Numbered from the stretch's first letter, positions 18,123-58,441 are shown. The stretch is DNA of 64,000 bases from Elusimicrobiota bacterium (GCA_033875325.1 JANRKA010000111.1:66790-130789), one strand, 5' to 3'. The notes: generated from the sequence alone by a model not told the origin. A program made the numbers and translations.

Positions 18123-18131
18123 TCTTTGAAC

Positions 18132-18140
18132 ATTATACCA
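18132..18140 (-). promoter_or_regulatory. Extended -10 promoter TGGTATAAT, 9 nt upstream of ATG 18122
   Basis: The 26-nt gap reads on the minus strand GCCCATAG-TGG-TATAAT-GTTCAAAGA-ATG. There is no Shine-Dalgarno sequence. Confidence 0.6.
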
Positions 18141-18148
18141 CTATGGGC

Positions 18149-19234
18149 TCAGGATGCGTAGAGGCGGGAGAGGGCCGCCAACTGCCTCTCCCGGGAGAAC
18201 TCCCGCCGCACCCGCTCCCGCCCGGCCTCGCCCAGGCGGCGGCGCTCCTCGGGACGGTCGATGAGGCGCTGGCAGGCCTCGAGCAGCTCGACTTCGGTCT
18301 TGACCAGCACGCCCGCGTCGCCGACCGCGTCGCGGTTGCCCGGGATGTCGGAGGCGACCACGGCCGCGCCGGCGGCCATCGCCTCGAGCACGGCGTTGGG
18401 CAAGGCGTCCCACTTCGAGTAATGCACGAAGAGGTCCACGCCCGCCAGACGGCGGCGCGCCTCCTCGGCGGGCAGCCAGCCGGTGATGTCGGTCTTGGCG
18501 GTCAAGTTCATGTTCTCGAGGTTCACGCGCACGCGGGCCTCGTCCTCGCCGCCGCCGATCCAGGCCATGCGCAGGCCGTTGCGCGAGTCCGTCAGCCGTT
18601 GGGCCAGCAGCACCCAGGCGTCGGGGTCGCGCGCGGCCGTCAGGCGGCCGCAGGAACCCACGACCAGCCCGTCGTGCGGCAGACGCGCGGGGAAGTCGCC
18701 GAGGTAGGCGTCGTTGACGACGTGCACCGGACGGCGTCCGACGAGCTCGCGCGCGAGCGCGGCTTCGCCCTCGGACACGGCGACGGTCTCGCCGATGCGG
18801 CCCATGACGCGTTCGAGGGCCTTGTACAAAGCGCGTTTGGCGGCCGGGCGGTCGCGCATCAGGAAGCCGTAGCCGTGCGGGCTGTAGAAGATCTTCTTGA
18901 CGCCCGCGGACTTGGCCGCGGCGCGCGCCAATACGCCGGCCTTCGACGAGTGCGCGTGCACCGCGTCGGGCCTGTGTTCGGCGAAGAGGCGGCGCAGCTC
19001 GCGCAGCGCGGCGGCGTCTTGGACCGGCGAGATCTCGCGGGTCAGCTCCGGCACGAAGTAAGCCGCCTTCGCCCCGGCGCATTTCGCGCGGTAGGCTTGA
19101 GGGTCGGAGTCGCGGACGGCGTAGACCAGCGACACCTCGAAACGCGCGGGGTCGAGCCCGTTGCAGATGCCGGCGACCTGCTCGCCCGTGCCGCCGGGGC
19201 CGCCGCATTCGACGACCTGGAAGACCTTGATCAT
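18149..19234 (-). CDS. Glycosyltransferase family 4 (GT-B, retaining type)
   Basis: Internal ATG 19234 (MIKVFQVVECGGPGG) overlaps the upstream TGA by 4 nt. The C-terminal motif is DALPNAVLEAMAAGAAVVASDIPGNRDAV. Confidence 0.85.
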   Translation of the reverse strand: MIKVFQVVECGGPGGTGEQVAGICNGLDPARFEVSLVYAVRDSDPQAYRAKCAGAKAAYFVPELTREISPVQDAAALRELRRLFAEHRPDAVHAHSSKAGVLARAAAKSAGVKKIFYSPHGYGFLMRDRPAAKRALYKALERVMGRIGETVAVSEGEAALARELVGRRPVHVVNDAYLGDFPARLPHDGLVVGSCGRLTAARDPDAWVLLAQRLTDSRNGLRMAWIGGGEDEARVRVNLENMNLTAKTDITGWLPAEEARRRLAGVDLFVHYSKWDALPNAVLEAMAAGAAVVASDIPGNRDAVGDAGVLVKTEVELLEACQRLIDRPEERRRLGEAGRERVRREFSRERQLAALSRLYAS

Positions 19235-20478
19235 GCGCGCAGCCTCCGGAGGAGCTCCTCGGCCGCGAAGGGGAAGAGCATGGGAAGATAGAGCAGCTTG
19301 TGGCGCCCCGCGCTGCCGAGGTCGAACTCCATCAGCGCGGAGCCGGCGGTCATGAGCGCGAAGAAGACGAGCGGCACGACCGACGCGGGTTTCCAGTCCC
19401 GGCGGCGCGCGAGTCCGGCGGCGGCGGCGACGGCGAGCGCGAGCAGGAGGAGGTTCTCGCCCGACGCGAGCAGGCGGCCGAGCTTGCCATCGGACGGGTA
19501 GAGGCCCGGCAGCGGCTGGAACAGGACCGTGAACGCCGCGCTCGGGAGGAACGCGGCGACGTCGAACCAATCCTCGAACCGTGCGTCGGGCCGGATCTGC
19601 GTGCCGATGCGGCGGTTGTGGGAATAAAATGCGTATTCACGGTCGGACGCTTGCCGCTGAGCTCGTCGGTGGCTGAGGCCGCGCGGCGTCCAAGGGGGTG
19701 GGACGGGCCCTGAAACGGCGATGGGGGCCAGGGGCGGCAGGGTGGCCGGCACGCTCGGGGGCAGGGGTATGACCCGCTCGAAGAGGCCGGCGGACAACGC
19801 GTGGTACGCGGGGACGGCGGCCAACGCCGCGAGCAGGACCAAGGCGGCGGCCGGGCGCGCGCGCCGCGTCTTCAAGGCCCACGCCGCGCCCAGGGCGAAG
19901 GCCGCGCAGGACACCGCGAGCACGTAGGAGCGCAGGAAACCCGCGGCGACGAGCAGCAGCAAGGCCGCGGCGAGGCGCCTCGGCGAGGGCCGCTCGCCGT
20001 CGAGGACGGGAAGAAGCAGGGCCCACGCGCCGAACAGCAGCGCGAAGGTCGGCGCCTCCTTGAAGTTCTGCGAGGTGTAGAACGCGTGCGACGGCCACGC
20101 GGCGACGAGGGCCGCGGCGGCCAGCGCCGCGCGCTCGGATACGACGGCGCGAAACGCGAGCCCGAGCAGGACCACCGCCAGCGCCCCGAGCGCGGCGTTG
20201 ACGAGCTTCACCGGGTACGGCCGCGGCCCGACAAGGAGATAGGGCACCGCGATGAGCGCCGCGTGCGCGCGCTGCGAGGCGGAATACGGCAGAGGCTTCG
20301 CCCGGCCGGTTTTCCAGGTGTCGCTGAGGTCGCGCGCCAGGCTTTCCGCGAAACGGGCGTCCTGGTAATAGTAGGAGGGGAACAGGGGAGCGAATTCGGT
20401 CAGCGTCGCCGTGCCGGCCCGCAGGAGGAAGGCCGCCGCGCCCAGCAGCAGCCAGCGGCGCGCGTCAGTCGGCGACAC
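19231..20478 (-). CDS. Polytopic membrane protein, GT-C-like (PMT_2/ArnT-like) glycosyltransferase candidate
   Basis: GTG start at 20478. There are about 10 hydrophobic segments, and a first loop rich in aromatic and acidic residues (FPSYYYQDARFAESLARD). It lies directly downstream of a Dpm1-like GT2. Confidence 0.65.
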   Translation of the reverse strand: MSPTDARRWLLLGAAAFLLRAGTATLTEFAPLFPSYYYQDARFAESLARDLSDTWKTGRAKPLPYSASQRAHAALIAVPYLLVGPRPYPVKLVNAALGALAVVLLGLAFRAVVSERAALAAAALVAAWPSHAFYTSQNFKEAPTFALLFGAWALLLPVLDGERPSPRRLAAALLLLVAAGFLRSYVLAVSCAAFALGAAWALKTRRARPAAALVLLAALAAVPAYHALSAGLFERVIPLPPSVPATLPPLAPIAVSGPVPPPWTPRGLSHRRAQRQASDREYAFYSHNRRIGTQIRPDARFEDWFDVAAFLPSAAFTVLFQPLPGLYPSDGKLGRLLASGENLLLLALAVAAAAGLARRRDWKPASVVPLVFFALMTAGSALMEFDLGSAGRHKLLYLPMLFPFAAEELLRRLRA

Positions 20479-21157
20479 GGTAGCGCAGGAGGCACCACAG
20501 GTAGGAGAAGGCGTCCTTCCAGGTGATCTTCTTGCCCTCGGCGTAGGTGCGGCCGCTGTAGGAGATGGGCACCTCGTAGAGCCGCAGACGCCGCTTGCAG
20601 ACCTTGGCGGTGAGCTCGGCCTCGATGCCGAAGCGTTCGCTCTCCAGAGGGATGGCCTTCAGCAAGTCGGCGCGGAAGGCCTTGTAGCAGGTGCCCATGT
20701 CCGAAAGGTTGATGTCATAGAGCACGTTGGTCAGGAGGGTGAAGAACTTGTTGGCGGCGAAGTGCCAGAACAGCAGCACGCGGTGCGGCCCGCCCATGAA
20801 GCGGGAGCCGTAGACCGCGTCGGCGCGGCCGTCGAGCAGGGGCGCGAGCAGCCCGGGCCAATCGGCGGGGTCGTATTCGAGGTCCGCGTCCTGGATGACG
20901 ACGAAATCGCCGGTCGCGCGCTCCAGCGCGGTGCGCACGGCCGCGCCTTTGCCGCGATTGACCTCGTGGAAGACGACCTCGGCGCGCCCCGGCGCCAGGG
21001 CGCGCAGCAGCTCGCGCGTGCCGTCGGTGGACGCGTCGTCGACGAGCACGACCTGGCGGCCGACGGGCAGGGCGACGGCCTCGACTCGACGCAGGAGCTC
21101 GAGAACGGTGTCCTTCTCGTTGTAGACCGGGATGAGGACGCTGAGGGTCTTCGTCAC
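20465..21157 (-). CDS. Glycosyltransferase family 2, Dpm1/ArnC-like polyprenyl-phosphate glycosyltransferase
   Basis: GTG start at 21157. Motifs: LSVLIPVYNE, VLVDDASTDGT, VVIQDADLEYDP, 230 aa. Confidence 0.85.
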   Translation of the reverse strand: MTKTLSVLIPVYNEKDTVLELLRRVEAVALPVGRQVVLVDDASTDGTRELLRALAPGRAEVVFHEVNRGKGAAVRTALERATGDFVVIQDADLEYDPADWPGLLAPLLDGRADAVYGSRFMGGPHRVLLFWHFAANKFFTLLTNVLYDINLSDMGTCYKAFRADLLKAIPLESERFGIEAELTAKVCKRRLRLYEVPISYSGRTYAEGKKITWKDAFSYLWCLLRYRVAD

Positions 21158-21163
21158 GGGGAG

Positions 21164-21169
21164 ATTATA
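21164..21169 (-). promoter_or_regulatory. -10 box TATAAT, 6 nt upstream of GTG 21157
   Basis: The 16-nt gap reads on the minus strand TAA-CGCC-TATAAT-CTCCCC-GTG. Confidence 0.5.
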
Positions 21170-23144: not shown

Positions 23145-24313
23145 GCCCGTGGTCCGGCGCCCCACAGCCAGCTGAGCAGGAAGAAGGTCGCGGCCTGTTC
23201 GGTCTGCCAGGCGGTTTCGGTGAGGTTCATGACGACGAAGGCGGCCGTCGCGGCCAGCGACCACAACGCGGCCGCGTCGCGGCGTTCCAGCCAGGCTCGC
23301 CGCGCGCCGGCGTAGAAGGCCCAGAACAGCGCCAACAGCAGGCCCAGGCCCGGAAACCCGCGCTCGGCGAGCTGATGGAGGAAAAGGTTGTGGGCCGAGC
23401 CCCAGACGCGCTCACCGTCGAGCGCGCCCTGCGCGCCGGTCTCCTCGAAGGCGCGGCGGAAGCTGCCGGGTCCCACGCCCGTCACCGGACGCTCGCGCGC
23501 CATGGCGAGCGCCGCGTCCCAGAGCACGAGACGGGCGCGGTGCGCCGAAGCTTCGGGGCTGTCCGAAAGCAAAGTCCGCAGGTTGCGTCCGCCGGTCGGC
23601 GCGAACTCCCAGGCGACGCCCAACGCGACGAGCGAGACGAGCGCGGCGAGCAGCCCGCGGCGCAGCCGCGGGACCTCGAGGGCGGCCGCGGTGGCGGCCG
23701 CGGCCGACGCGAGCAGCACGGCGCGCGTCTGATTCGCCGCGAGCGCGGCGAGCAGGAGCAGAGCGCCGGCCGCCGACGCCCGTCTCGCGCCGGGGGCCAG
23801 GGCCGCCAACCCCAGGCAGGCCGCCGCGCCGATGAGCCCGAGCCCGATCATCTCGCCGTAGACGACGGCGTGCACGAAGCCCCTCGCCCGCACGAAGCCG
23901 GCCTCGCCGCCGCTGAGAAACACGGTCTGCCCCAGGCCGACGAGCGCGGCCGCGACGAGGCCGGCGGCCAGGCCCGCGCGCGTTTTGGCGCGCGGCACGG
24001 AGCCCAGGGCGGCGCCCAGGGCGAGAAACGCCCACAAGCGGTGCAGCTCCTTGGGCCAGGCGCGCAGCCCGCGGGACGAGTCGAGACCGGCGGCGGCGCA
24101 GACCAACGCCCAGACCGCGCCCGCCGCGAGCAGCTTGAAGACGGGAGAACGCAGGGCGTCACGCAGCGCCGCGCGCAAGCCGGGGTCGGAGCTCCAGGAC
24201 GCGGCGAGCGAGACGGTGAGCACGCCGAGCGCGGCATTGACGCCGGCGATGGAGAGCGGCGCGGCGAACGCCGCGGCGGCGAGGGCCCACTGCGAGACGG
24301 CGCGCGGGTTCAT
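23141..24313 (-). CDS. O-antigen ligase / polymerase family (Wzy_C domain) membrane protein
   Basis: Full tracked ORF. It is polytopic, with a signature loop WGSAHNLFLHQLAERGFPG. Confidence 0.8.
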   Translation of the reverse strand: MNPRAVSQWALAAAAFAAPLSIAGVNAALGVLTVSLAASWSSDPGLRAALRDALRSPVFKLLAAGAVWALVCAAAGLDSSRGLRAWPKELHRLWAFLALGAALGSVPRAKTRAGLAAGLVAAALVGLGQTVFLSGGEAGFVRARGFVHAVVYGEMIGLGLIGAAACLGLAALAPGARRASAAGALLLLAALAANQTRAVLLASAAAATAAALEVPRLRRGLLAALVSLVALGVAWEFAPTGGRNLRTLLSDSPEASAHRARLVLWDAALAMARERPVTGVGPGSFRRAFEETGAQGALDGERVWGSAHNLFLHQLAERGFPGLGLLLALFWAFYAGARRAWLERRDAAALWSLAATAAFVVMNLTETAWQTEQAATFFLLSWLWGAGPRA

Positions 24314-24320
24314 CGGCGTC

Positions 24321-24326
24321 AGTCTA
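24321..24326 (-). promoter_or_regulatory. -10-like box TAGACT, 7 nt upstream of ATG 24313
   Basis: The 13-nt gap reads on the minus strand TAG-TAGACT-GACGCCG-ATG. Confidence 0.4.
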
Positions 24327-25829
24327 CTACATCGACGGCGCGAGCCTGTAGACCCGGGCCGTGACGCCGGGCGCGACGGGGACGCTGGCCGTCAGGCGCG
24401 CGGGCAGTCGTCCCGATTCGACCGCCGCGGCGACGCCGGCGTTGGCGCGGTTGAGGAAGCCGGGGGCCTGCGCGACCGGCTCGCCCTCCACCAGGACGAG
24501 GGCCGTCGCGCCGCGGTCCTTGAGGCGCAGCAGCGCGCCCTCGACGCTCGACTGCGCGTAGCCCAGGCTGATGCAGCGCAGCGCCAGCCCGCGGGCGGCG
24601 GACGCCGAAGCGAGGTTGTTCGCGTTGAGGCGGCGGTCCTCCAACGCGAGCGCGACGACGCCGTCCTCGCCCGCGGCGGCGGCGGCGGCGGTCACGAGCG
24701 CGTCGCGGTCCCAGGCGGCCTCGCGCGACGGAGCGCCGCTCCAGGGCATGCTCGTCCCGGCGGGGGCCAGGAAGGTCTCGCGGACGAACACCCCGCCGCC
24801 GGTCGCGAGCAGCAGAACGGCGGCGGCGACGCGCGGCGCCCGCCCTTCGAGCGACGAGGCGGCGCCAGCGGCAAGCAGCGCCAGGCCCGGCAACGCGGGT
24901 GCGACGAGCCGCGGCTCGGCGTTGACGCCGGCGGCGAAGAGGAGCAGGGGCGCGAGCCAGGCGAGGGCGAAACGCGTCCCCGCGTCGAAGAACACGCGGC
25001 CGCGCGCGGCCGCCGCGGCCGTGACCAGCGCGAGGGCCGCGGCGAAGGGCCAGGACAGGGCGCCGGCGCACAGCCGGAAGGGGAACGAGAGCGGCCCTCC
25101 GCCGGCGTAGTCGGCCGCGACGCGCCCGAACGCGGCGCTCCAGGCGAAGGCGAGGACGAAGGGCAGGTTGAAGGCGTACCAGGTCGCGGCGAGGACGGAC
25201 CCCAAGAACAGCGCCGCGCGCGCGTGCGGGGCCAGCGCGCCCCTCCTCAGCCAGACGAAGCCGGCGACGAACGCGGGGAAGGTCACCTTGGCGAGCAGGC
25301 CCAAGCCGAGGAGCAGGCCCAGGACGGAGGCTTCGCGCGCGTCCCGGCGGGCCGCGGCGACGCGCCAGGCCGCGGCCGCCGTCAGCGCCGTGAGCAGGCT
25401 CTCGACGAGGAAGACGCGCGAGAGCCCGTAGAGCAGCGGCGTCAGCGCGACGAGGCTGGCGGCCAGCGCGGCCGCGCGCTCGCGCCGCTCGTCGTCGCGC
25501 CACAGCTCCCGGGCCGTCGCGGCGGTGAACGCGCAGGTCGCTCCGTGCAGGACGAGGCCGGTGAGGGCCGCGGCCTTCTCCGAAGGGCCGACGAGCGCGT
25601 ACAGCGGCAGGGGCAGCAGGCTGACCAGGGGCGCTTTGGTCCGGAAGGCGCCCGCCCATTGCGCGGCGAAGTCGGCGAGTCCGCGGCCGAGGGCGTGGAA
25701 GAGGCGGAAGGAGACCTCGAGGTACCAGGCGTCGTCCCAAGCCGGCGCGGCGGTCTCGGCGGCGACGCGCCACGCTCCGGCCGCGAGGACGGCGCCCACG
25801 AGCAGCGCGGCCGCGCGGCGCGGGGTCAC
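24327..25829 (-). CDS. ArnT/PMT_2-type (GT39/GT83-like) GT-C membrane glycosyltransferase
   Basis: The start is taken at GTG 25829, which overlaps the upstream TGA (GTGA). The first loop is APAWDDAWYLEVSF. There are multiple TM segments and a ~130-aa C-terminal soluble domain. The remaining 891 codons of tracked ORF 24327-28502 are wrong-frame. Confidence 0.8.
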   Translation of the reverse strand: MTPRRAAALLVGAVLAAGAWRVAAETAAPAWDDAWYLEVSFRLFHALGRGLADFAAQWAGAFRTKAPLVSLLPLPLYALVGPSEKAAALTGLVLHGATCAFTAATARELWRDDERRERAAALAASLVALTPLLYGLSRVFLVESLLTALTAAAAWRVAAARRDAREASVLGLLLGLGLLAKVTFPAFVAGFVWLRRGALAPHARAALFLGSVLAATWYAFNLPFVLAFAWSAAFGRVAADYAGGGPLSFPFRLCAGALSWPFAAALALVTAAAAARGRVFFDAGTRFALAWLAPLLLFAAGVNAEPRLVAPALPGLALLAAGAASSLEGRAPRVAAAVLLLATGGGVFVRETFLAPAGTSMPWSGAPSREAAWDRDALVTAAAAAAGEDGVVALALEDRRLNANNLASASAARGLALRCISLGYAQSSVEGALLRLKDRGATALVLVEGEPVAQAPGFLNRANAGVAAAVESGRLPARLTASVPVAPGVTARVYRLAPSM

Positions 25830-29527: not shown

Positions 29528-30520
29528 TCAGACGTTGTAGAGCCCGGCTTTGTAGTCGGCGAGGTGGGCGCGGACGTATTCGACCGTGCGCGCCAGGCCC
29601 TGCTCGAGCGGCACGCGCGGCCGCCAGCCCAGGAGCTTGCGCGCCTTGGCATTGCCGCAGATGAGGCGCATGACCTCGCTGCGCTCGGGGCGGACCCGGG
29701 CGCGCTCCTCACGCACCTCGGCCTTGCGGCCGGTGAGCTTCATGAGCAGGCGCGCGGTCTCGCCGATGGTGACGCCGCGTCCCGAGCCGACGTTGATGAC
29801 CTCTCCCACGGACTTGGGCGAGGCGGCCACCGCGAGGAAGCCGTCCACCGTGTCGGCGACGAAGTTGAAGTCGCGCACCGGGGACAGGGAGCCCAGGTTG
29901 AGCTTGGGCTCCGGCTGCAGGAGCTGGCAGATGATGGTGGGGATGACGGCGCGGGCGGATTGGCGCGGGCCGTAGGTGTTGAAGGGACGGCAGACGGCCA
30001 CCGGCAGGCCGAAGGACTTCTCGAAGCTCAGCGCGAGCTGGTCGGCGCCGATCTTGGTGGCGGCATACGGGGACTGGCCCTGGAGGGGGTGCTCCTCGTC
30101 GATGGGGACGTAGCGCGCGGTGCCGTAGGTCTCCGAGGTCGAGGTGTGGACCACCTTGCGGACCTTGGCGCGGCGGGCGGCCTCGAGCACGTTGAGGGTC
30201 CCCGACACGTTGGCCGCCACGTAGGACGCGGGCGCGGCGTAGGAGTAAGGGATGGCGATGAGGGCGGCGAGGTGGAAGACCACGTCGGAGCCCGCGACCA
30301 GGTCGTTGACGCAGCCCGGGTCGGTGACGTCGCCGGCGCGGATCTCGACGCGGCGTCCCAGCGCCGGGTCGAGCTCCTCGAGGAAGCCCCAGTGCCCGCG
30401 CGAGTTGTAGTGCACCATGGCGCGCACGCGCGCGCCGCGGCGGGCGAGCTCCTCGGTCAGGTGCGAGCCGATGAAGCCCCCGGCCCCGGTCACAGCCACT
30501 CGCGCGTTCTTCCAGTTCAT
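29528..30520 (-). CDS. Extended-SDR NAD-dependent sugar 4,6-dehydratase/decarboxylase/epimerase family protein
   Basis: Full tracked ORF. Motifs: VTGAGGFIGSHL, STSETYG, YAATK. It is preceded by its own promoter. Confidence 0.85.
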   Translation of the reverse strand: MNWKNARVAVTGAGGFIGSHLTEELARRGARVRAMVHYNSRGHWGFLEELDPALGRRVEIRAGDVTDPGCVNDLVAGSDVVFHLAALIAIPYSYAAPASYVAANVSGTLNVLEAARRAKVRKVVHTSTSETYGTARYVPIDEEHPLQGQSPYAATKIGADQLALSFEKSFGLPVAVCRPFNTYGPRQSARAVIPTIICQLLQPEPKLNLGSLSPVRDFNFVADTVDGFLAVAASPKSVGEVINVGSGRGVTIGETARLLMKLTGRKAEVREERARVRPERSEVMRLICGNAKARKLLGWRPRVPLEQGLARTVEYVRAHLADYKAGLYNV

Positions 30521-30527
30521 CGGTTGG

Positions 30528-30536
30528 ATTCTATCA
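30528..30536 (-). promoter_or_regulatory. Extended -10 promoter TGATAGAAT, 7 nt upstream of ATG 30520
   Basis: The minus strand reads TGA(stop)-TAGAAT-CCAACCG-ATG, so the stop codon of the upstream gene supplies the TGn element. Confidence 0.55.
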
Positions 30537-32422: not shown

Positions 32423-33327
32423 GCCCCGCCCTCCATGTGTTCCCTCATGTCGGCCAGCCCGTCGGCGAGCGCCATCGCCTTGACGCCGAGTTCCTTCTCC
32501 ATGCGCTTGACGACGAAGGTGGTGTCCGGCGGGCGCCTGGCGATGGCGGGGAAACGCGCGCTCGTCACGCGTTTGACGAGCCCCGCGTCGAGGCCGAAGG
32601 CCTTCGCCACGGCCAGCCCGAACTCCCAGCGGTTGACCACGGTCTTTCCCGCGAGGTGGAAGACGCCCGAGGGGCGTTTCTTGAGGACGGCCCACAAAGC
32701 GCGGCCGCACTGCCGGTTGTAGAGCGGGTTCTCGCGCACGTCGTCCACGAGCTCGACGGCTTCCCCGCGCAGGAGCTTCTCATAGACCCAGGTCGCGGGG
32801 TTGGGGCGCGTGACCGTGCGGTTCCAGCCGTACATCAGGATGGGGCGCACGATGGTCCACTTCTCGAGGGTCTCCTGCACCAGACGCTCGCACTCGACCT
32901 TCAGGCGGCCGTATTTGTTGACGGGGTTGGTCGGGTCCTTCTCCGAATAGGGCGCGTCGGTCCCGTCGAAGACGGCGTTGGTCGAGACGTAGACCAGGTG
33001 GATGCCGCGCGTGCGGCAGGCCGCCGTCACGTTGAGCGTGGAGACGATGTTGGACTCGAGGCTCTCCGCGTATTTGGTCTCGACGTAGTCCACGCTGGCG
33101 ATGCCGGCGGCATGGATGACGGCGTCGAACTTGTGGCGGGTGAAGAGCCGTTCCACCGCGCGTTTATCGCGCAGGTCCACGGACAGGTGCCGGGCGCGTT
33201 TGGCCGGGACCTTGTAGTCGCGCAGGTGGACGGAGGTGATGGCGACCCCGGAAGGGGCCGTCTCTTCCAGGCCCTTCCCTAATAGGCCGGTCCCGCCGGT
33301 GACGAGGATGTGAGGCCGGGCGCTCAT
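32419..33327 (-). CDS. RmlD-like (dTDP-4-dehydrorhamnose reductase family) SDR sugar reductase
   Basis: Internal ATG 33327 (MSARPHILVTGGTGLLG). The YGRLK motif is present; the product is 302 aa. The remaining 366 codons of tracked ORF 32419-34425 are wrong-frame. Confidence 0.8.
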   Translation of the reverse strand: MSARPHILVTGGTGLLGKGLEETAPSGVAITSVHLRDYKVPAKRARHLSVDLRDKRAVERLFTRHKFDAVIHAAGIASVDYVETKYAESLESNIVSTLNVTAACRTRGIHLVYVSTNAVFDGTDAPYSEKDPTNPVNKYGRLKVECERLVQETLEKWTIVRPILMYGWNRTVTRPNPATWVYEKLLRGEAVELVDDVRENPLYNRQCGRALWAVLKKRPSGVFHLAGKTVVNRWEFGLAVAKAFGLDAGLVKRVTSARFPAIARRPPDTTFVVKRMEKELGVKAMALADGLADMREHMEGGA

Positions 33328-33334
33328 CGGGGGG

Positions 33335-33343
33335 ATTCTACCA
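33335..33343 (-). promoter_or_regulatory. Extended -10 promoter TGGTAGAAT, 7 nt upstream of ATG 33327
   Basis: The minus strand reads AAA-TGG-TAGAAT-CCCCCCG-ATG within the 33-bp divergent gap. Confidence 0.6.
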
Positions 33344-33348
33344 TTTCG

Positions 33349-33354
33349 TATGAT
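33349..33354 (+). promoter_or_regulatory. -10 box TATGAT, 6 nt upstream of ATG 33361
   Basis: The plus strand reads TATGAT-GGGGCC-ATG in the same 33-bp gap. Confidence 0.5.
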
Positions 33355-33360
33355 GGGGCC

Positions 33361-33969
33361 ATGAAACCACGGTTCTTGCCGTTGGTCGCCGTCCTCTCCG
33401 TCCTCGCCGGCTGCGCGGGAAGCGCGAAGGCGCCGTCCGCTTCCTCCCCGCAGGACGCCTTCATGGCCGAGCTGGCCTCTTTGTGCGGCAAGGCCTTCGA
33501 GGGACGCATCGCCGCGAAAGTCGGCGGGAGCGCGGGGCCCGACCCCTTCGAGGGCAAGACCCTGACCCTGCACGTGCGCGAGTGCGCGCCGGGCGTCGTG
33601 CGCGTGCCGTTCCACGTCGGCGACGACCGCTCCCGCACCTGGGTGTTCACTCGCACCGCGGCGGGTCTGCGCCTGAAGCATGACCACCGCCACCAGGACG
33701 GCACGCCCGATGCCATGAACCTCTACGGCGGCGACGCCGTCGACGCCGGGACCCGAGAGAGGCAGTCCTTCCCCGCCGACCAGGCGTCCAAAGACATGTT
33801 CGTCAAAGGCGGCATCCCGCAGTCGGCGGAGAACGTCTGGGTGGTCGGGTTGATCCCCGGTAGGTCGTTCAGCTACGCGCTGACGCGACCGGGGCGCGAG
33901 TTCCGCGTCGAGTTCGACCTGACGCGGCCGGTGTCGCCGCCGCCGGCGCCCTGGGGCTCGGAGCCTTAG
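33361..33969 (+). CDS. Lipoprotein of unknown function; the only plus-strand gene inside the glycan array
   Basis: Internal ATG 33361. The signal peptide has a lipobox: MKPRFLPLVAVLSVLAGC. The product is 202 aa. Its 3' end overlaps the convergent gene by 4 nt. Confidence 0.75.
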   Translation: MKPRFLPLVAVLSVLAGCAGSAKAPSASSPQDAFMAELASLCGKAFEGRIAAKVGGSAGPDPFEGKTLTLHVRECAPGVVRVPFHVGDDRSRTWVFTRTAAGLRLKHDHRHQDGTPDAMNLYGGDAVDAGTRERQSFPADQASKDMFVKGGIPQSAENVWVVGLIPGRSFSYALTRPGREFRVEFDLTRPVSPPPAPWGSEP

Positions 33970-35239: not shown

Positions 35240-35248
35240 GTCCGCTCC

Positions 35249-37752: not shown

Positions 37753-37760
37753 CCGGTCCC

Positions 37761-38359: not shown

Positions 38360-38366
38360 GCGTCCA

Positions 38367-39101: not shown

Positions 39102-39107
39102 GGGGCT

Positions 39108-39117
39108 ATGCTATCAT
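39108..39117. promoter_or_regulatory. Overlapping divergent extended -10 boxes inside the near-palindrome CTATGCTATCATAG
   Basis: Plus strand: TGCTATCAT (39109-39117), 10 nt before ATG 39128. Minus strand: TGATAGCAT (39116-39108), 6 nt before GTG 39101. Confidence 0.5.
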
Positions 39118-39127
39118 AGGCCCCCGC

Positions 39128-41551: not shown

Positions 41552-41557
41552 GGGGTC

Positions 41558-41563
41558 ATTATA
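41558..41563 (-). promoter_or_regulatory. -10 box TATAAT, 6 nt upstream of ATG 41551
   Basis: The minus strand reads GGGG-TATAAT-GACCCC-ATG. Confidence 0.55.
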
Positions 41564-41578
41564 CCCCTTCGCCCGCCG

Positions 41579-41607
41579 TTGACCCGCCGCCGGAGAGGGG
41601 CTACACT
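41579..41607 (+). promoter_or_regulatory. Promoter TTGACC, 17 nt, TACACT, 6 nt upstream of ATG 41614
   Basis: TTGACC at 41579-41584, a 17-nt spacer, TACACT at 41602-41607, then GGCGTC and ATG. Confidence 0.6.
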
Positions 41608-41613
41608 GGCGTC

Positions 41614-42969
41614 ATGAAGCTCCTGGCCGCGGTCGCGGTGTGCGCCTGCCTCGCCGCGCCCGTCCGGGCGGCGGACGCGGGCCCGCTCCAAGACGTGGTG
41701 GTGCGCCCCGGAGACACGCTTTGGTCCATCGCCAACCGCTACCTGGACGACCCGTCTCGTTGGGACGAGATCCTCGCGCATAACCGCCTCCCCAGCAAGG
41801 ACCCCACCATCGCCCTGCCGGGCATGACCTTGAGGGTGCCGACGCGTCTCATCAAGGCGGCCATGCGCGCGGCGCACCTGACCTACTTCGTCAACGAGGT
41901 CCGCTGGCGGCGCAGCGAGACCGCGGGTTGGAAGGGCGTCAGCGTGGGCATGGAGCTGCGCCGCGGCGACGGCCTGCGCACGCACGCCGATTCGCGGGCG
42001 CGCGTCATGCTGCTCGACAAGGAGCTGCTGAACCTGGAGGCCGACTCCATGGCCATCATCAAGCCCGACGAGGCTTCCGACCTCGTGCTGCGCCGCGGCG
42101 GCGTCTTCGCGGGCAAGGCCCGCATCGTCACGGCTTCGGCGCGCGTGACGCCCCGCTCGGGCGACACGCGCTACTTCGCCTCCGTCGAGCCGGACCTGAC
42201 CACCCGCGTGCAGGTCATGCGCGGCACGGCGACCGTGGACGCGCAGGGCGCCAGCGTGGAGGTCCCGGCGGGCATGGAGACGGCCGTGCCGCCCGGGATG
42301 AAGCCGGGCCCGCTGCGGCCGGTGCGCGACCTCCCGCTGCTGGAGGCGCGCGCGCAGGAGCACCTCTCGGCGCTCAAGGCCGGGGGCGGCATCGCCGCCG
42401 ACCCGCGCCCCGAGCCGCCGGCGCCGGAGCCCGAAGGCGACGTGGAGTCCGTGCGCGGCGACATCCAGGTGCTCAAGATCGGTCAGCCCATCAAGGCCTA
42501 CCACGTCCAGGCGTCGGCCACCGTGGACTTCCGCAAGCCGCTGTTTGACCGCTTCTACGACGAAGGCGAGCGTTTCGTCCCCTCCGACACCGGCCTGGCG
42601 CCCGGCAACTACTGGTGGCGCGTCGCGGCCGTCGACCTGCTCGGCGTCGAGGGGGCTTTCAAGCCCGCTCATTACTACAGCCTCGGCCTCAAGCAGGCGG
42701 ACCCCGACGAGGAGCGCATGGCCTCCGCGCTGAGCATCCTGACCCCGGAGAACAACGACCAGATCGGCGGCGAGGTCGCCCGGGCGTCGGGCATCCTGCG
42801 CGACCAACGACTGACTTTGCACATCAACGGCGTGCCGGTGAAGGTCAACGAGGACGGCACCTTCGCCATCACCGTGCGCGTGCGCTACGGCCGCACGGCC
42901 ATCGTCTTCAGCCTGACCGACCCGAAGGGCAACCAGGCCCACGTCTCGCGCTACGTCATGAAGCTGTAG
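41614..42969 (+). CDS. Secreted LysM-domain / FecR-domain protein
   Basis: The signal peptide is MKLLAAVAVCACLAAPVRA. LysM is VVRPGDTLWSIANRYLDDPSRWDEILAHNRL. The central FecR-like region is GDGLRTHADSRARVML. Confidence 0.8.
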   Translation: MKLLAAVAVCACLAAPVRAADAGPLQDVVVRPGDTLWSIANRYLDDPSRWDEILAHNRLPSKDPTIALPGMTLRVPTRLIKAAMRAAHLTYFVNEVRWRRSETAGWKGVSVGMELRRGDGLRTHADSRARVMLLDKELLNLEADSMAIIKPDEASDLVLRRGGVFAGKARIVTASARVTPRSGDTRYFASVEPDLTTRVQVMRGTATVDAQGASVEVPAGMETAVPPGMKPGPLRPVRDLPLLEARAQEHLSALKAGGGIAADPRPEPPAPEPEGDVESVRGDIQVLKIGQPIKAYHVQASATVDFRKPLFDRFYDEGERFVPSDTGLAPGNYWWRVAAVDLLGVEGAFKPAHYYSLGLKQADPDEERMASALSILTPENNDQIGGEVARASGILRDQRLTLHINGVPVKVNEDGTFAITVRVRYGRTAIVFSLTDPKGNQAHVSRYVMKL

Positions 42970-46325: not shown

Positions 46326-47266
46326 GCCCGCTCCGGCCGCAACGGGAAGTCCACGGGCACCGGCGCCTCGAAACGCAGGGGGCGGCCGTCCTCGGGGTGC
46401 TGGAAAGAGAGGCGCCAGGCGTGCAGGAGCTGGCGCTCGGCGCCGAGCGCGGCCAGGTCGGCGGGCTCGAGGCGTTTGTCCACCGCCTTGAGATAGACCT
46501 CGCCGTTGCCGTGGTAGAGCTTGTCGCCCGCGATGGGGTGACCGATGGAGGCCAGGTGCGCGCGTATCTGGTGCAGGCGGCCCGTGCGCGGCTTGGCCGA
46601 GAGCAAGGTGAACCGCCCGTCGCCCGCCAAGCGCCGGAAATCGGTGACGGCGTCGTCTCCGCCCGCGACGCCGACGGCGCGGCGGACCTTGATGACGCCG
46701 CCCTCGTCGCCGATGGGCGCGTCCACGGTCTTCTCCGCCCAGTCCACGGCGCCGAGCACGACGGCGAGGTATTCCTTCTTCACGGCGTGCGCGAGGAACT
46801 GGCCGTGGATGTCGCGCGCGGCGGCGGCGTCGAGCGCGAGCAGGAGCACCCCGCTGGTCTCGCGGTCGAGGCGGTGGGCGAGATGGACGGGCCGCCCGAG
46901 CTGCCGGGAGAGCAGGTAGGTCACCGTGTTGTGGTGCACCTTGTCGGTGGGGTGGCTGAGCGTGCCGCCGGGCTTGTTGATGACCACGAGGCGCTCGTCC
47001 TGATACAGGATGGGCATGGTCTCGTGGGGGACCGGGGGCTCGACGGTCCGGGGGTAACGGATGAGGACGGTCTCGCCGTCGGCGACGCGCGCGGAGGGTT
47101 TGGCGGGGCGGCCGCGCAGGTACACGCGGCCCTCGCCGATGACGGCCTGGACCTGGGCGCGGGAGTACTTGTGCAGGCGCGCGGCGAGGAAGGCGTCCAG
47201 GCGCATGCCCGCCTGCTCCTTGAGGGGTTTGAACGGGACTTCGACCCAGGTCTGCGTCGTGCTCAC
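46322..47266 (-). CDS. RluA-family pseudouridine synthase (RluD-like, with S4 domain)
   Basis: Motifs: HRLDRETSGVLLLA, GRLHQIRAHL. The start is set at GTG 47266 because an extended -10 (TGGTATACT, 47281-47273) lies inside the longer tracked ORF, 6 nt upstream. The tracked start at 47299 remains possible. Confidence 0.85.
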   Translation of the reverse strand: MSTTQTWVEVPFKPLKEQAGMRLDAFLAARLHKYSRAQVQAVIGEGRVYLRGRPAKPSARVADGETVLIRYPRTVEPPVPHETMPILYQDERLVVINKPGGTLSHPTDKVHHNTVTYLLSRQLGRPVHLAHRLDRETSGVLLLALDAAAARDIHGQFLAHAVKKEYLAVVLGAVDWAEKTVDAPIGDEGGVIKVRRAVGVAGGDDAVTDFRRLAGDGRFTLLSAKPRTGRLHQIRAHLASIGHPIAGDKLYHGNGEVYLKAVDKRLEPADLAALGAERQLLHAWRLSFQHPEDGRPLRFEAPVPVDFPLRPERA

Positions 47267-47272
47267 CACCCC

Positions 47273-47281
47273 AGTATACCA
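47273..47281 (-). promoter_or_regulatory. Extended -10 promoter TGGTATACT, 6 nt upstream of GTG 47266
   Basis: The minus strand reads TGG-TATACT-GGGGTG-GTG. Confidence 0.5.
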
Positions 47282-49397: not shown

Positions 49398-49426
49398 TTG
49401 ACAAGCGCGAGGGCGTCCGTTATAAT
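49398..49426 (+). promoter_or_regulatory. Consensus sigma70 promoter: TTGACA, 17 nt, TATAAT
   Basis: TTGACA at 49398-49403, a 17-nt spacer, and TATAAT at 49421-49426, upstream of the TetR gene. Confidence 0.7.
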
Positions 49427-49433
49427 ACCGTCA

Positions 49434-49446
49434 GTCACAATGTGAC
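49434..49446. promoter_or_regulatory. Perfect 13-bp palindrome GTCACA-A-TGTGAC, a putative TetR autoregulatory operator
   Basis: Read directly. It begins 8 nt after the -10 box and ends 8 nt before ATG 49455. Confidence 0.55.
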
Positions 49447-49454
49447 CAATAGTC

Positions 49455-50078
49455 ATGACGCCTGTCATCGATAGAAAAGAACGGGAGTTCGAGCGGCGCG
49501 AGGGGGAGATTCTCGCGGCCGCGCTTTCCTTGTTCAACCGGGACGATTGGCAGTCGGTGACCATCGACCAGATCGCCGCCAAGGCCGAGATCGGCAAAGG
49601 CACGGTCTACAAACACTTCGAGAGCAAGGACCAGATCTACGCGAAGCTCGTCCTGGAATTCCATCGCGGCATCATCACCGAGATCGCGAACATAGACCGG
49701 ACCCGTCCGCCTCTCGAGGTGTTGGGCGCCACCCTCGACGCGTTCTGGCGCGGCCACAACTCCAAGTCCGAGTACAAGCGCTTGGTGCGCTACTGCCGGC
49801 GCGAGGACTTCCACAGCATCATCGGCCCCGAATTGAGCAAGGAGCTCGAGCAGCTCGACGAGCAGATCATGGGGCTTCTGGTGCCCGTCTTCGAGCGCGG
49901 CATCCGGGAAGGCGTCATCCTCGACAAGCCGGTTCCCGCCCTCATCCTCGGGGTGCACGCCGCGATGGTCGGGCTCATGGAGATGGAAGGCGTCGAGTGC
50001 ATGGAGACGGGCATGACGCAAGAAGAGCAGTACCAAGAGGTCAAGGCGTTCGCGCTGCGGGGCATCTCGCGGGGTTAG
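49455..50078 (+). CDS. TetR/AcrR-family transcriptional regulator
   Basis: The N-terminal HTH is VTIDQIAAKAEIGKGTVYKHFESKDQIY. It is followed by efflux genes. Confidence 0.9.
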   Translation: MTPVIDRKEREFERREGEILAAALSLFNRDDWQSVTIDQIAAKAEIGKGTVYKHFESKDQIYAKLVLEFHRGIITEIANIDRTRPPLEVLGATLDAFWRGHNSKSEYKRLVRYCRREDFHSIIGPELSKELEQLDEQIMGLLVPVFERGIREGVILDKPVPALILGVHAAMVGLMEMEGVECMETGMTQEEQYQEVKAFALRGISRG

Positions 50079-50085
50079 GAGGAGT

Positions 50086-51516
50086 ATGATTTTTTTTGCC
50101 GAAAAAATGACTGATGGTCATAAAATGAACAGCGGTCGCATTATTGTAAGCCTGGCGTTTCTCGCGTTGCCGGCGGCCGCGCAGACCCTTCCTCTGGACG
50201 CCTTCCTTCGTCAGGTCGAGGAGAAACACGGCGGCGTGCGCGCCGCGGCCGAAGCCGAGACGGGTTCGCGCGCGCGCGCGGCCGAAGGCGAGCTGCCGCT
50301 GTCTCCGTTGATGTTCTTCGAGGGGGAGCGTTCGCTCGACGCCTCGCCCAAGAACTTCCCCGCGGCCGAAGGCGAACGCGTGGAGCGCAGCTCCGCGCGC
50401 GCGGGCATCAGCCGCAAGACCACGCTCGGCCTCAGCGCCAAGGTCTTCTACGCGTTCTCGCGCAACGACCTCAACGGCGCGGACCCGAACTTCGTGCGGC
50501 CGCCTTCCTATTATTTCGCCAGCCCGGGCGGCGAGTTGAGCCTGGACCTGTGGCGCAACCTGTTCGGCCGCGAGACGCGGGCGCGCGTGGACGCGACGCG
50601 CCAGCGCGCGCTGGGCCGTTCGCGCCAGTCGCGCTTGGAGCGTCGCCGCTTGCTGGCCGAGGCCGAGGCCGCGTATTGGACGCTGTCCGCCGCGCGCCGC
50701 AAGGAGGGCATCGCGGCGGAAAGCCTCGAACGCGCCGAGACCCTGCGCGACTGGGTCGCCGACCGCGTGAACCGCCGGCTCGCGGACCGTTCCGAGGGCT
50801 TGGAGGCCGAAGCCGTGGTCCGCCTGCGCGCGCTCGAGCTCCGGGCCGCGGCCGATGAGCGCCGGACCGCGGAGCGCGCCTTCGCCGCCCAGCTCGGCGG
50901 CGGCGACGCCGCCGGCGAACTCGCCGCGCTCGACGATGACGGCTCGGTCCCGCGCCGCGCCGCCGTGCCCGACGACGTCGCGACCGCCGGCCACGACGAG
51001 GCCGCTTCCGCCGCGGAAGCGCGACTCGGCGTGGAAGGCACCCGCCCCGCCGTCGAGCTCTACGCCGCCGGCTCGCTCAACGGCCGGCGCGGCGCGTCCT
51101 CGCAGGCCGTCAACGACTCCTTCAGCCCCGACGGGCCGCGTTACGCCGTGGGTTTGAGGGCGACTTATTCGCTGGACCCCGCTCTGGTGCGCGGCGTGCG
51201 CGACGGCTACCGCCAGGAGGCGAAATCCGCGGCCTCCCGTCGCGGCCGCGCCGAGCTCGACGCCGCGGAGCGTTGGAAGGACCTCGAAGCCGGGCTGGGC
51301 GACGCTCGCGAGCGCGTGAAGCTGGCGCGCGCCATCGAGGAGACCCAGAAGGAGCGCGCGGAGGCCGAACGCCGCCGCCGCGAGGAAGGGCGCACCACGA
51401 CCTTCTTCGTGCTGCAGGCCGAGCAGGACTGGGCGTCGGCGCGCCGCGCGCGCGTCGAGGCCGAGTTGGGCGTGAGACTGACTTTGGCGCGCATGAAGCC
51501 GTTCACCGAGGAATAA
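50086..51516 (+). CDS. TolC/OEP-family outer-membrane efflux protein
   Basis: ATG 50086 is preceded by TAGGAGGAGT, a Shine-Dalgarno sequence overlapping the TetR stop (alternative ATG 50125). The signal peptide ends in ALPAAAQT. Two OEP-like repeats are rich in coiled segments. Confidence 0.8.
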   Translation: MIFFAEKMTDGHKMNSGRIIVSLAFLALPAAAQTLPLDAFLRQVEEKHGGVRAAAEAETGSRARAAEGELPLSPLMFFEGERSLDASPKNFPAAEGERVERSSARAGISRKTTLGLSAKVFYAFSRNDLNGADPNFVRPPSYYFASPGGELSLDLWRNLFGRETRARVDATRQRALGRSRQSRLERRRLLAEAEAAYWTLSAARRKEGIAAESLERAETLRDWVADRVNRRLADRSEGLEAEAVVRLRALELRAAADERRTAERAFAAQLGGGDAAGELAALDDDGSVPRRAAVPDDVATAGHDEAASAAEARLGVEGTRPAVELYAAGSLNGRRGASSQAVNDSFSPDGPRYAVGLRATYSLDPALVRGVRDGYRQEAKSAASRRGRAELDAAERWKDLEAGLGDARERVKLARAIEETQKERAEAERRRREEGRTTTFFVLQAEQDWASARRARVEAELGVRLTLARMKPFTEE

Positions 51517-54500: not shown

Positions 54501-54678
54501 GGGCGGCATCATCAGCTCGACCTTGCTGACTTTGTTCGTCGTGCCCGCGGCCTACGCGCTTCTGGAGCGTTTCCGCCGCTGGTCGTTGGGCCTGGCCCGC
54601 CGCGCCGGCGGGCTGGACAAGACCCCGCGACAGGCCGAGCCGCGCTCCGCGCCCGTCGCGGAGACCGCCGCCGTTTAG
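51520..54678 (+). CDS. RND-family (AcrB/HAE1-type) efflux permease
   Basis: 1052 aa. Typical features: N-terminus RPVFVTSVVVLMLAAG, 12 TM segments and two large loops, and GLLIDDAIVVRENI. Confidence 0.9.
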   Translation: MDLPELSVKRPVFVTSVVVLMLAAGGLMMTRLGVDLFPDVTFPVVNATVEYPGAGPDEIETQVLKPLEDEISTIAGLKKLRGVAKEGVGVVIAEFTLETDSKYAEQQVRDRVALAKRKLPEDAKEPVIRRFDPGDMPQLAIAVSADLPPGELYDLADDVVRPALQQVDQVGLVEVIGGRKREIRAELDRAQLARREVSAAQVSDALRAAGKNTPAGRVTRGGGDRLFRTLGDFTDPAEVGSVVVAFRGNEVPIRVRDLGTVVDGLQDERTRAFWNGKPALYVQVYRQSGSNTLAVVAAVKARLAKLQEELASRPGAPKLTVVMDRSKAIDDNIWDVQETILVGIVLTFVVVFFFLGSARSTLITGLAIPNSLLGAFVLMYFAGFTINMMTLLAMSLAVGLLIDDAIVVRENIFKRQEAGEPALSAAVDGAREVSLAVVATTAAVAAVFLPIAFLNGVVGQFFKEFGLTVVFAMAISLFDALTIAPMLSAYFAGGGAHAPKGTGPVARAVAAVDRWQTRLEDSYAAALRGWGRRPGPVLGGALAVFALSLVAAGFVPKTFLPPQDIGLFSVTLELEPGASLEATAAAAAKVDAVLRARPEVKTTKLTVGTLDNESHKADFFVELVPRKARSMNTTRFKELMREELKPLAAYKPAVKDYDDFGAGERPFNLVFLGQDAKVLREFADKAYARLKDHPGLLEPDLSEKPGKPEVRAVVDDAAAKRLGLSTALVGRELRAQIEGELPAVFRKDGREYDVRVRLKEDQRDLESSFASAAVPNLNGRLVRLNDAVRLVSGRSPSTVNRSARARSVRLEADVAPDGPGLGGVMSDFRALLDGELKPPQGVTYRFEGQAENFEELVMNMAIAALLGTFFIYLVLASLYESFVTPFTIMLVLPLAASGGFFALLVTGKSLDVYSMIGMILLLGIATKNSILLVDRTKQLTDGGMEESEAVVQAGRDRLRPILMTSFALVAGMIPVAVGLNEASAQRTSMGVTAVGGIISSTLLTLFVVPAAYALLERFRRWSLGLARRAGGLDKTPRQAEPRSAPVAETAAV

Positions 54679-54817
54679 GAGGACACATGGACGAACGCGA
54701 TGACGAGGACCGGGACTGCCGCCCCGTCTACCGTTGGACCGCGGATTCACGACTGCTGAAGACGACGCGCTGCGGCGCGGCGGACGCGACGCGCGACGAA
54801 AAAGGAGAACTCAGACC

Positions 54818-55585
54818 ATGAAACTCGACGGCCGCACCATCCTCATCACCGGAGGCTCCGCCGGCATCGGCCTCGCCTTCGCGCTCAAGTTCGTCGAGCT
54901 CGGCAACGAGGTCATCGTGACCGGCCGGCGCCGCGCGGTCCTCGACGAGCTGAAGTCGAAGCACCCGAAGCTGCACGTGATGCAAAGCGACGCCGCCGAT
55001 CCCGCCCAGATCGCGGCGCTCGCGGCGCGGGTCAAGAGGGAATTCCCCAAGCTCGACGTCTTGATGAACAACGCGGGCATCCTGCTGTACAAGGACCTGA
55101 AGGCTCCGGCTTCGGACCTCGCCGGGCTGACGGCGGAGATGGAGATCAACGTGGGCGGCGTCGTCCGGACGACCTCCGCGTTCATCGACTTGTTGAGGGC
55201 CAACAAGGGCACGGTCATCAACGTCTCCTCGGGCCTGGCCTTCGTGCCGCTGCCGGCCGCTCCGATCTACAGCGCCACCAAGGCCGCGATCCACTCCTAC
55301 ACGCAATCGCTGCGGTTCCAGTTGGAGGAGACCGGCGTGGAGGTCGTCGAGATCATGCCTCCGGCCGTGAAGACCGACATGACGGCGGCTTTCTCCGAGG
55401 GTGAAGGCGTGCCCCTGATGACCACAGATGAATTGGTGAGCCTCTCCGTCGCTTCCCTCGAAGCGGGTAAGCTCGAGATCCGGCCGGGGCAGGCCAATCA
55501 GCTCGCGTTCATGAGCCGGCTCGCGCCCGGCTTCATCAACGGGCAGCTGTGGAAGGCCTCCAAGCGTCTGGTGCCCTCCGCATGA
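54818..55585 (+). CDS. Classical SDR-family oxidoreductase
   Basis: Internal ATG 54818 is preceded by AAGGAG. Motifs: ILITGGSAGIGLA, NNAG, YSATKAAIHSY. Confidence 0.85.
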   Translation: MKLDGRTILITGGSAGIGLAFALKFVELGNEVIVTGRRRAVLDELKSKHPKLHVMQSDAADPAQIAALAARVKREFPKLDVLMNNAGILLYKDLKAPASDLAGLTAEMEINVGGVVRTTSAFIDLLRANKGTVINVSSGLAFVPLPAAPIYSATKAAIHSYTQSLRFQLEETGVEVVEIMPPAVKTDMTAAFSEGEGVPLMTTDELVSLSVASLEAGKLEIRPGQANQLAFMSRLAPGFINGQLWKASKRLVPSA

Positions 55586-58108: not shown

Positions 58109-58110
58109 GC

Positions 58111-58425
58111 CTACTCCGCGCGCGGGCGCGTCAGCCAGGCCAACGCGGCACCCGCGAAGGACCAGGCGACGAGCGCTTCGAGCAGCGCGCCGCCCGTCAT
58201 GTCCCACGGCGCGCGCCCGGCCCAGGCCAGCGTCCCCGCGGTCAGCAGGAAAAGGACCTTCTCGACGAGCGACCGCGGCCCGAGCTGCTCGAGGAGCAAG
58301 GTCGCGAGGAATCCGGCGAGCAGGCAGCCGAACAGGCTCGGCCCGACCGGCGAAGCCCACGGCGCCATGGCGCAGGCGGCGAGCACGAGCCCCCCGACGA
58401 AGGTCCCCGCGAGCAGCCTCTTCAT
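58111..58425 (-). CDS. Small (104-aa) membrane protein of unknown function
   Basis: Internal ATG 58425 lies 6 nt downstream of a TATAAT box. It has three hydrophobic segments. The rest of tracked ORF 58111-59022 is wrong-frame, antisense to the reading frame of rarA. Confidence 0.6.
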   Translation of the reverse strand: MKRLLAGTFVGGLVLAACAMAPWASPVGPSLFGCLLAGFLATLLLEQLGPRSLVEKVLFLLTAGTLAWAGRAPWDMTGGALLEALVAWSFAGAALAWLTRPRAE

Positions 58426-58431
58426 GCCGTG

Positions 58432-58437
58432 ATTATA
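58432..58437 (-). promoter_or_regulatory. -10 box TATAAT, 6 nt upstream of ATG 58425
   Basis: The minus strand reads hairpin-TTTC-TATAAT-CACGGC-ATG. Confidence 0.55.
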
Positions 58438-58441
58438 GAAA

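Follow-up and report, generated by a model that had tools for sequence, protein, structure and literature searches.

In a 64,000-nucleotide stretch of DNA (the window; positions 66790-130789 of contig C111, JANRKA010000111.1) from the metagenome-assembled genome (MAG) GCA_033875325.1 of an uncultured Elusimicrobiota bacterium, and throughout the rest of that genome, -10 hexamers of the form TANNNT stand a few nucleotides before the start codons of many genes. An earlier note, made from the sequence of the window, had listed 13 such genes as evidence of pervasive leaderless expression, and our data confirm both the 13 sites and a genome-wide signal. These elements are very probably housekeeping sigma-70-type promoters set directly against coding sequences, which would give leaderless or near-leaderless mRNAs. 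The source genome comprises 3.63 Mb in 204 contigs with 70.6% GC, and the 32 related FolD loci found in public genomes (top identities 94% and 88%) all come from MAGs of uncultured Elusimicrobia/Elusimicrobiota, sampled in groundwater, soil and similar environments.

Direct reading of the sequence recovered 13 of the 13 claimed pairs of -10 box and start codon, each with the position, strand and spacing claimed for it, and none of the 13 spacers contains GGAG, GAGG or AGGA, in agreement with the claim that no Shine-Dalgarno (SD) sequence lies in between. In addition, a gene-level scan made blind to this list returned all 13 sites together with a fourteenth, at 38359 on the minus strand. The sites are given below in window coordinates.

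41549-41563, minus strand: HAD hydrolase gene; TATAAT (41558-41563), 6 nt, ATG 41551, the first start codon after an in-frame stop; Pfam Hydrolase from residue 3.
41579-41616, plus strand: LysM protein gene; TTGACC (41579-41584), 17 bp, TACACT (41602-41607), 6 nt, ATG 41614; also found in a promoter scan.
39099-39116, minus strand: tlyA-like gene (S4 plus FtsJ methyltransferase); TGATAGCAT, 6 nt, GTG 39101.
39109-39130, plus strand: folD gene; TGCTATCAT, 10 nt, ATG 39128; near-leaderless, with an expected leader of approx. 3-4 nt.
37750-37789, minus strand: B12-binding radical SAM gene; TTGACG, 17 bp, TGTTACAAT, 8 nt, ATG 37752.
38357-38371, minus strand: response-regulator gene, absent from the earlier list; TATAAT (38366-38371), 6 nt, ATG 38359.
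33325-33343, minus strand: RmlD-type reductase gene; TGGTAGAAT, 7 nt, ATG 33327; RmlD domain from residue 6.
33349-33363, plus strand: putative lipoprotein gene; TATGAT, 6 nt, ATG 33361.
30518-30536, minus strand: NDP-sugar dehydratase/epimerase (SDR) gene; TGATAGAAT, 7 nt, ATG 30520; the TGA also terminates the upstream gene.
24311-24326, minus strand: O-antigen-ligase family (Wzy_C) gene; TAGACT abutting the upstream TAG stop, 7 nt, ATG 24313.
21155-21169, minus strand: GT2 glycosyltransferase gene; TATAAT, 6 nt, GTG 21157; predicted internal promoter, 16 nt past the upstream stop.
18120-18140, minus strand: DUF4910/M28-like gene; TGGTATAAT (18132-18140), 9 nt, ATG 18122.
58423-58437, minus strand: 104-aa membrane protein gene; TATAAT, 6 nt, ATG 58425.
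47264-47281, minus strand: RluA-type pseudouridine synthase gene; TGGTATACT, 6 nt, GTG 47266.

For 12 of the 13 genes listed in the earlier note the in-frame extension upstream of the claimed start has a negative, non-coding score, the GT2 gene at 21157 being weakly positive (log-likelihood ratio +4.1). Pfam domains begin at residues 3-10 in six proteins (HAD, TlyA, FolD, RmlD, the GDP-mannose-dehydratase-type SDR and GT2), and these six starts therefore cannot be much further downstream, being fixed independently of the promoter motif.

The spacing signal was assessed across the genome by an annotation-free test, in which start codons were tallied by spacer length after all 6384 genomic TANNNT hexamers. 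ATG follows at spacers of 6, 7, 8 and 9 nt in 392, 216, 136 and 149 cases respectively against a background of 77 +/- 14 (z = 22, 9.9, 4.2 and 5.1), and GTG likewise peaks at a spacer of 6 nt (187 compared with a background of approx. 70), whereas TTG shows no spacing peak anywhere in the genome. When genes were called with a codon-usage model (3107 genes, covering 92% of the genome), in-frame ATG codons were found at spacers of 5, 6, 7, 8, 9 and 10 nt in 29, 284, 141, 66, 87 and 46 cases, with a background of approx. 18. The peak is confined to ATG and GTG codons that lie in frame with coding regions and at their onset, and the genome-wide profile for out-of-frame ATG and GTG codons is flat. 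Furthermore, of the TAGAAT hexamers in the genome 55% are followed by a start codon at a distance of 5-10 nt, and of the TATAAT hexamers 50%.

These controls bear on the possibility that the pattern arose by chance, or as an artefact of picking starts that follow A/T-rich hexamers, a concern that is legitimate in so far as the gene-level scan may choose among several candidate starts and has a false-positive rate of approx. 10% at control spacings. The annotation-free z value of 22 and the flat out-of-frame profile both contradict it, as does an independent pattern count, in which TGNTANNNT-N6-ATG occurs 84 times in the genome and the reversed pattern only twice; in addition, 10 of the 13 window genes offer no alternative upstream start, the claimed one being the first ATG, GTG or TTG past the upstream in-frame stop. 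We regard chance or artefact as refuted, with a residual probability that is practically negligible.

The check proposed in the earlier note, i.e. a genome-wide search for positional enrichment of TANNNT before operon-first genes, was then applied to the called genes, for which a divergent upstream neighbour marks a gene as certainly first in its operon and a distance of 20 nt or less from a co-directional neighbour marks it as tightly packed. TANNNT lies 5-10 nt from the start in 399 of the 676 divergent first genes (59%), as against 63 and 71 (approx. 10%) at two control spacings, and in 119 of the 1508 tightly packed genes (8%), as against 22-24 (approx. 1.5%). The predicted enrichment at approx. 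-12 to -7 of operon-first genes was thus found, and with it the predicted depletion of SD sequences. After correction for the controls, the signature extends to approx. 670 genes (22% of all genes) and to approx. 40-55% of transcription units.

To describe the element itself, we aligned 783 signature sites from the whole genome, of which 605 have ATG, 178 GTG and none TTG as the start codon. The spacer is most often 6 nt (398 sites), followed by 7 nt (161), 9 nt (79) and 8 nt (70). The alignment reads T at -15 (49%) and G at -14 (67%) followed by TA-n-A-A-T, with a weak -35 TTG at 17 bp; a TGn extension is present at 34% of sites and 6% of control hexamers, and a -35 TTG at 16-18 bp at 20% of sites and 6% of controls. 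The frequency of this -35 TTG varies with the hexamer, from 8-9% with TAGAAT or TATAAT to 42-44% with TATCCT, TATACT or TACACT. The element thus has the TGn extension of sigma-70 extended -10 promoters and the compensation among their TGn, -35 and -10 modules, and as a trade-off of this kind is typical of sigma-70 promoters it argues against a translational signal. C directly precedes the start purine at 61% of sites, in agreement with the common pyrimidine(-1)/purine(+1) rule for transcription starts. TATCCT was considered as a separate motif class or repeat and rejected, since its 60 sites share nothing but a more frequent -35 TTG.

We also considered that the hexamer might act in translation and not as a promoter, i.e. 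as the non-SD signal of leadered mRNAs known from 'group B' genomes such as those of Bacteroidota. It does occupy positions -12 to -7, the usual place of the SD sequence, which it replaces in the signature genes. The spacing peak of 6 nt, however, is the standard distance from a -10 hexamer to the transcription start, and the hexamer carries a TGn and a -35 TTG at 17 bp as mutually compensating modules. A group B motif stands before internal genes as well as first genes (PMC6028130), and the anti-SD goes unused; here 59% of first genes have the motif but only 8% of internal genes, a seven-fold difference, the internal genes use SD sequences instead, and the canonical anti-SD is retained in relatives and used by other genes. 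The data therefore support the action of the hexamer as a promoter and not as a ribosome-binding site, and we consider the group B reading very improbable.

The SD sequences of this genome are found where the signature is not: an SD 4-mer peak at 4-9 nt is present in genes without the signature in every gene context, whereas no SD peak was found among the signature-bearing genes called across the genome. The 3' end of the 16S rRNA is GGAUCACCUCCUUUC, with the canonical CCUCC anti-SD, in one genome of the same genus and two other relatives; this was read from relatives as no 16S rRNA gene was found in the source MAG. All four window sites offered in the earlier note as SD-led counter-examples are present, one of them serving just a 44-aa open reading frame (ORF).

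15234-15246, minus strand: internal operon gene with SD; TAGGAGAACC-ATG, ATG 15236.
35237-35251, minus strand: internal operon gene with SD; TAAGGAGCGGAC-ATG, ATG 35239.
50077-50088, plus strand: TolC-like outer membrane efflux protein gene; AGGAGG, 3 nt, ATG 50086.
54677-54682: SD AGGAGG, overlapping the AcrB stop codon and preceding only the 44-aa ORF at 54687-54821.

This ORF is acidic, with a high GC content at third codon positions, and its stop and the ATG (54818) of the following SDR gene overlap in ATGA; a small, coupled upstream gene is one possible interpretation.

Spacing, gene context, SD absence and promoter features together support, in silico, the leaderless reading of the -10 boxes put forward in the earlier note, and the mechanism we propose is as follows. 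RNA polymerase would bind an extended -10 element with the consensus T-G-n-T-A-n-A-A-T, a weaker hexamer being helped by a -35 TTG at 17 bp, and would initiate at a purine 6-7 nt past the hexamer, the A or G with which the start codon begins. The transcript would then start with AUG or GUG, or carry a leader of at most approx. 4 nt, without an SD sequence, and ribosomes would bind the 5'-terminal start codon together with initiator tRNA. Downstream genes of the operon would rely on short overlaps such as ATGA or on ordinary SD pairing, the latter being proposed because relatives keep the canonical anti-SD.

Several points weigh against this reading. Where transcription starts and how translation proceeds are both deduced from DNA sequence, and the gene starts come from our own simple codon-based caller and not from a benchmarked program. 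Approx. 45% of first genes lack the signature. The spacers of 8-10 nt at folD, the DUF4910 gene and the radical SAM gene imply leaders of 2-4 nt and hence mRNAs that are not strictly leaderless. Finally, a co-directional gene ends 7-26 nt upstream of six of the 14 window sites, and the genes at these six sites may also ride on read-through transcripts, to which a leaderless mechanism would be inapplicable.

The last point can be extended into an alternative for these co-directional sites (30520, 24313, 21157, 18122, 58425 and 38359), namely that they are real but secondary internal promoters, most of the mRNA coming from upstream operon promoters and being translated by re-initiation or coupling. 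All six follow a same-strand gene within long strings of glycan-biosynthesis genes, no terminators were found between the genes at the six short gaps, and across the genome there are 119 signature-bearing genes among the 1508 that are tightly packed. Yet this count is still five-fold over the control (22-24), none of the six genes has an SD sequence that could be used on a read-through transcript, and the alternative does not bear on the divergent pairs, from which most of the genome-wide signal comes. We therefore consider it unlikely, at perhaps one chance in four.

Where neighbouring genes lie close together, the promoters of the leaderless reading are packed into very little sequence. In 133 divergent pairs across the genome both genes carry the signature, the window examples being the spacers 39102-39127, 33328-33360 and 41552-41613. 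The start codons are only 20-28 nt apart in 23 of these 133 pairs, most commonly 22-23 nt, with the -10 boxes face-to-face and partly overlapping, so that the whole intergenic region would consist of two overlapping -10 boxes; only one pair, at 17 nt, is closer than this cluster. The 26 bp spacer between tlyA and folD is of this type, and its palindromic double -10 (TATGATAGTATA, which is CTATGCTATCATAG in the window and the two closest relatives) is kept in most of the 29 related Elusimicrobiota loci listed. Bidirectional promoters with overlapping -10 elements are known from Escherichia coli and actinobacteria, where an offset of 18 bp is the commonest and 23 and 29 bp are also preferred (bioRxiv 10.1101/2020.01.31.928960). 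The preferred 23 bp may be compared with the 22-23 nt that is commonest here, our values being distances between start codons; in contrast with the 18 bp preference, only one pair is that close here, and both transcripts would be leaderless, with an intergenic region that is all promoter.

Co-directional neighbours show a peak at a gap of stop-13 nt-start, in which the stop codon of the upstream gene is reused in the promoter of the next. The stop codon directly abuts the hexamer in 13 cases, several times as a TGA that supplies the TGn (TGA-TAGAAT), and in 15 cases the hexamer itself starts with a TAA or TAG stop; stop codons lying in promoters of the window are TGA at 30534-30536 and TAG at 24327-24329.

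Two further elements were observed in the window. A 29-bp palindrome at 58442-58470 abuts the promoter of the 104-aa membrane protein gene (58425). This perfect or near-perfect palindrome, (G/T)TAACGAAAGGGAC(A/T)GTCCCTTTCGTTA(C/A), has at least 14 copies in the genome, sometimes in tandem, with at least 13 outside this position on C8, C56, C82 (three), C87 (two), C136, C139, C140, C144, C150 and C166; it frequently has a stop codon on one side and a start-adjacent promoter on the other, lacks a T-tract, and looks like a family of intergenic hairpins resembling repetitive extragenic palindromes. The TetR gene at the head of a TetR/TolC-like/AcrB efflux unit (ATG 49455) has a perfect consensus promoter, TTGACA-17-TATAAT, 28 nt ahead of its start codon (49398-49457). 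The predicted leader of approx. 21 nt has no SD and contains the palindrome GTCACA-A-TGTGAC, a likely TetR operator.

Conservation of the signature was examined in relatives. In a 200-kb sample of the complete genome CP096137.1 (69.6% GC) the same spacing peak was found (29 compared with approx. 5), 13 of 30 TGn hexamers standing at a spacer of 6 nt. The hexamer is kept at 5-10 nt in 15 of 22 orthologues of signature genes, with different intervening bases, and the radical SAM orthologue retains TTGACG-17-TGTTACACT-7-ATG. We then surveyed 301 genomes of the phylum for TGNTANNNT-N6-ATG with two controls, the reversed pattern and a spacing of N17. These are to be read as brackets: in AT-rich genomes codon periodicity raises the N17 counts, so that N6/N17 ratios understate the enrichment there, and the reversed pattern underestimates the background in such genomes. 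The ratios obtained were as follows.

Own genus: 10.9 to the reversed pattern, 6.8 to N17.
Other genera of the same family: 8.8 to the reversed pattern, 3.0 to N17.
Same order: 4.3-5.8 to the reversed pattern, 1.9-3.7 to N17.
Families f6 and f11: 2.0 and 6.6 to the reversed pattern, 2.5 and 2.2 to N17.
Small-genome family f4: 3.3 to the reversed pattern, 1.5 to N17.
Families f7, f10 and f12: 1.0-1.2 to the reversed pattern, 0.7-1.1 to N17.
Other classes of the phylum: 0.6-2.5 (mostly 1.0-1.7) to the reversed pattern, 0.5-1.0 to N17.

These data show that the signature is strongest in the genus and family of the source genome, weaker in sister families and absent from the other classes of the phylum. 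The trait is graded even within its own class, being strong in its own family, moderate in some sister families, including small-genome ones at approx. 48-52% GC, and absent from at least one family with 57% GC. Individual spacing profiles agree, as one f4 genome with 47.6% GC has a clear peak at a spacer of 6 nt (22 compared with approx. 4) and an f7 genome with 57% GC has none. In one AT-rich genome of the same class (G287, 34% GC, L091-L110) the TGNTANNNT-to-ATG spacing peaks at every third offset; this strict 3-nt periodicity, seen in AT-rich relatives, reflects codon phase within genes, and in pattern counts it can look like a constant distance from promoter to start. An apparent 'fixed 17-nt spacing' in family f5 was accordingly rejected as a promoter feature, being an artefact of codon periodicity. 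For G182, of the same order, the sample of 70 kb in short contigs was too small to give a spacing profile.

The architecture corresponds to 'group C' of GeneMarkS-2, in which a Pribnow box lies approx. 6-8 nt from the starts of first genes and SD sequences are used elsewhere, mostly at high GC (PMC6028130). This group comprises 1028 of 4769 bacteria, chiefly Actinobacteria and Deinococcus-Thermus (PMC6028130; bioRxiv 10.1101/2022.07.25.500264), with 773 Actinobacteria, 37 Deinococcus-Thermus and 104 Proteobacteria genomes (PMC6028130). The Elusimicrobiota genome likewise has high GC, TANNNT approx. 6-8 nt from starts, the motif at operon-first genes only, SD sequences at the internal ones and the rest, and AUG or GUG but not UUG as the start codon; its share of leaderless operons, approx. 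40-55%, lies in or just above the published 25-50% (PMC6028130). The published class is, however, assigned by the GeneMarkS-2 program, and ours by architecture. The earlier note had stressed that a leaderless signature known from Actinobacteria and Deinococcus occurs here in a diderm-type genome. The signature stands, and the TolC-like, AcrB and O-antigen-ligase genes of the window fit a diderm envelope, but the diderm emphasis adds little, as Deinococcus-Thermus and 104 Proteobacteria already belong to group C (PMC6028130).

Closer likenesses come from systems with experimental data. Differential RNA sequencing of Deinococcus deserti gave 740 ATG, 176 GTG and no TTG at 0-nt leaders, with no conserved -35 (PMC4007540). 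Its AUG:GUG ratio of approx. 4:1, lack of UUG and weak or absent -35 are matched here, and approx. 60% of its start sites are leaderless, compared with a signature at 59% of our divergent first genes (PMC4007540). In contrast, start sites and N-terminal peptides were measured in D. deserti, all of ours being inferred from DNA, and the TGn extension is prominent in the Elusimicrobiota genome. In Mycobacterium tuberculosis and M. smegmatis, as summarized in PMC6028130 (Cortes 2013, Shell 2015), a -10-only or extended -10 promoter abuts ATG or GTG as it does here, with a quarter to 40% of genes or operons affected; going by the same summary, the mycobacteria differ in phylum and cell envelope, and they alone of the two have experimental support.

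A full-text literature search found no report of leaderless initiation in Elusimicrobia/Elusimicrobiota, one match to an M. tuberculosis chaperone remaining unread. Elusimicrobia are not mentioned in the main text of the group C paper, the supplementary lists being outside this statement (PMC6028130), and no Elusimicrobiota are among the 49 bacteria whose mapped start sites were surveyed in 2025 (PMC12641261). For the two Elusimicrobia/Elusimicrobiota classes the literature lists an SD usage of 46% and 43%. The mechanism itself is therefore not new, and what we describe is the known group C architecture in a phylum for which it has apparently not been reported.

The finding brings in a phylum of Gram-negative type that does not belong to the classic leaderless groups. 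In practical terms, tools that expect SD sequences will mis-call gene starts in these MAGs, whereas start-codon-adjacent promoters at approx. 40-55% of transcription units fix N-termini and show where promoters and operon boundaries lie, among them the internal promoters of the window's glycan clusters; they also provide a compact promoter consensus for expression work, TGnTAnAAT-6-ATG. We give about even odds that the genus, family and order of this bacterium, a high-GC groundwater and soil lineage, are an unrecognized clade in which leaderless initiation is the main mode at first genes and arose independently of Actinobacteria and Deinococcus-Thermus. If so, high GC alone would not explain the pattern, and the phylum would provide a natural series in which to study the replacement of SD-led initiation at first genes. 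The patchiness of the trait within one class is in itself useful for asking what drives the gain and loss of leaderless initiation.

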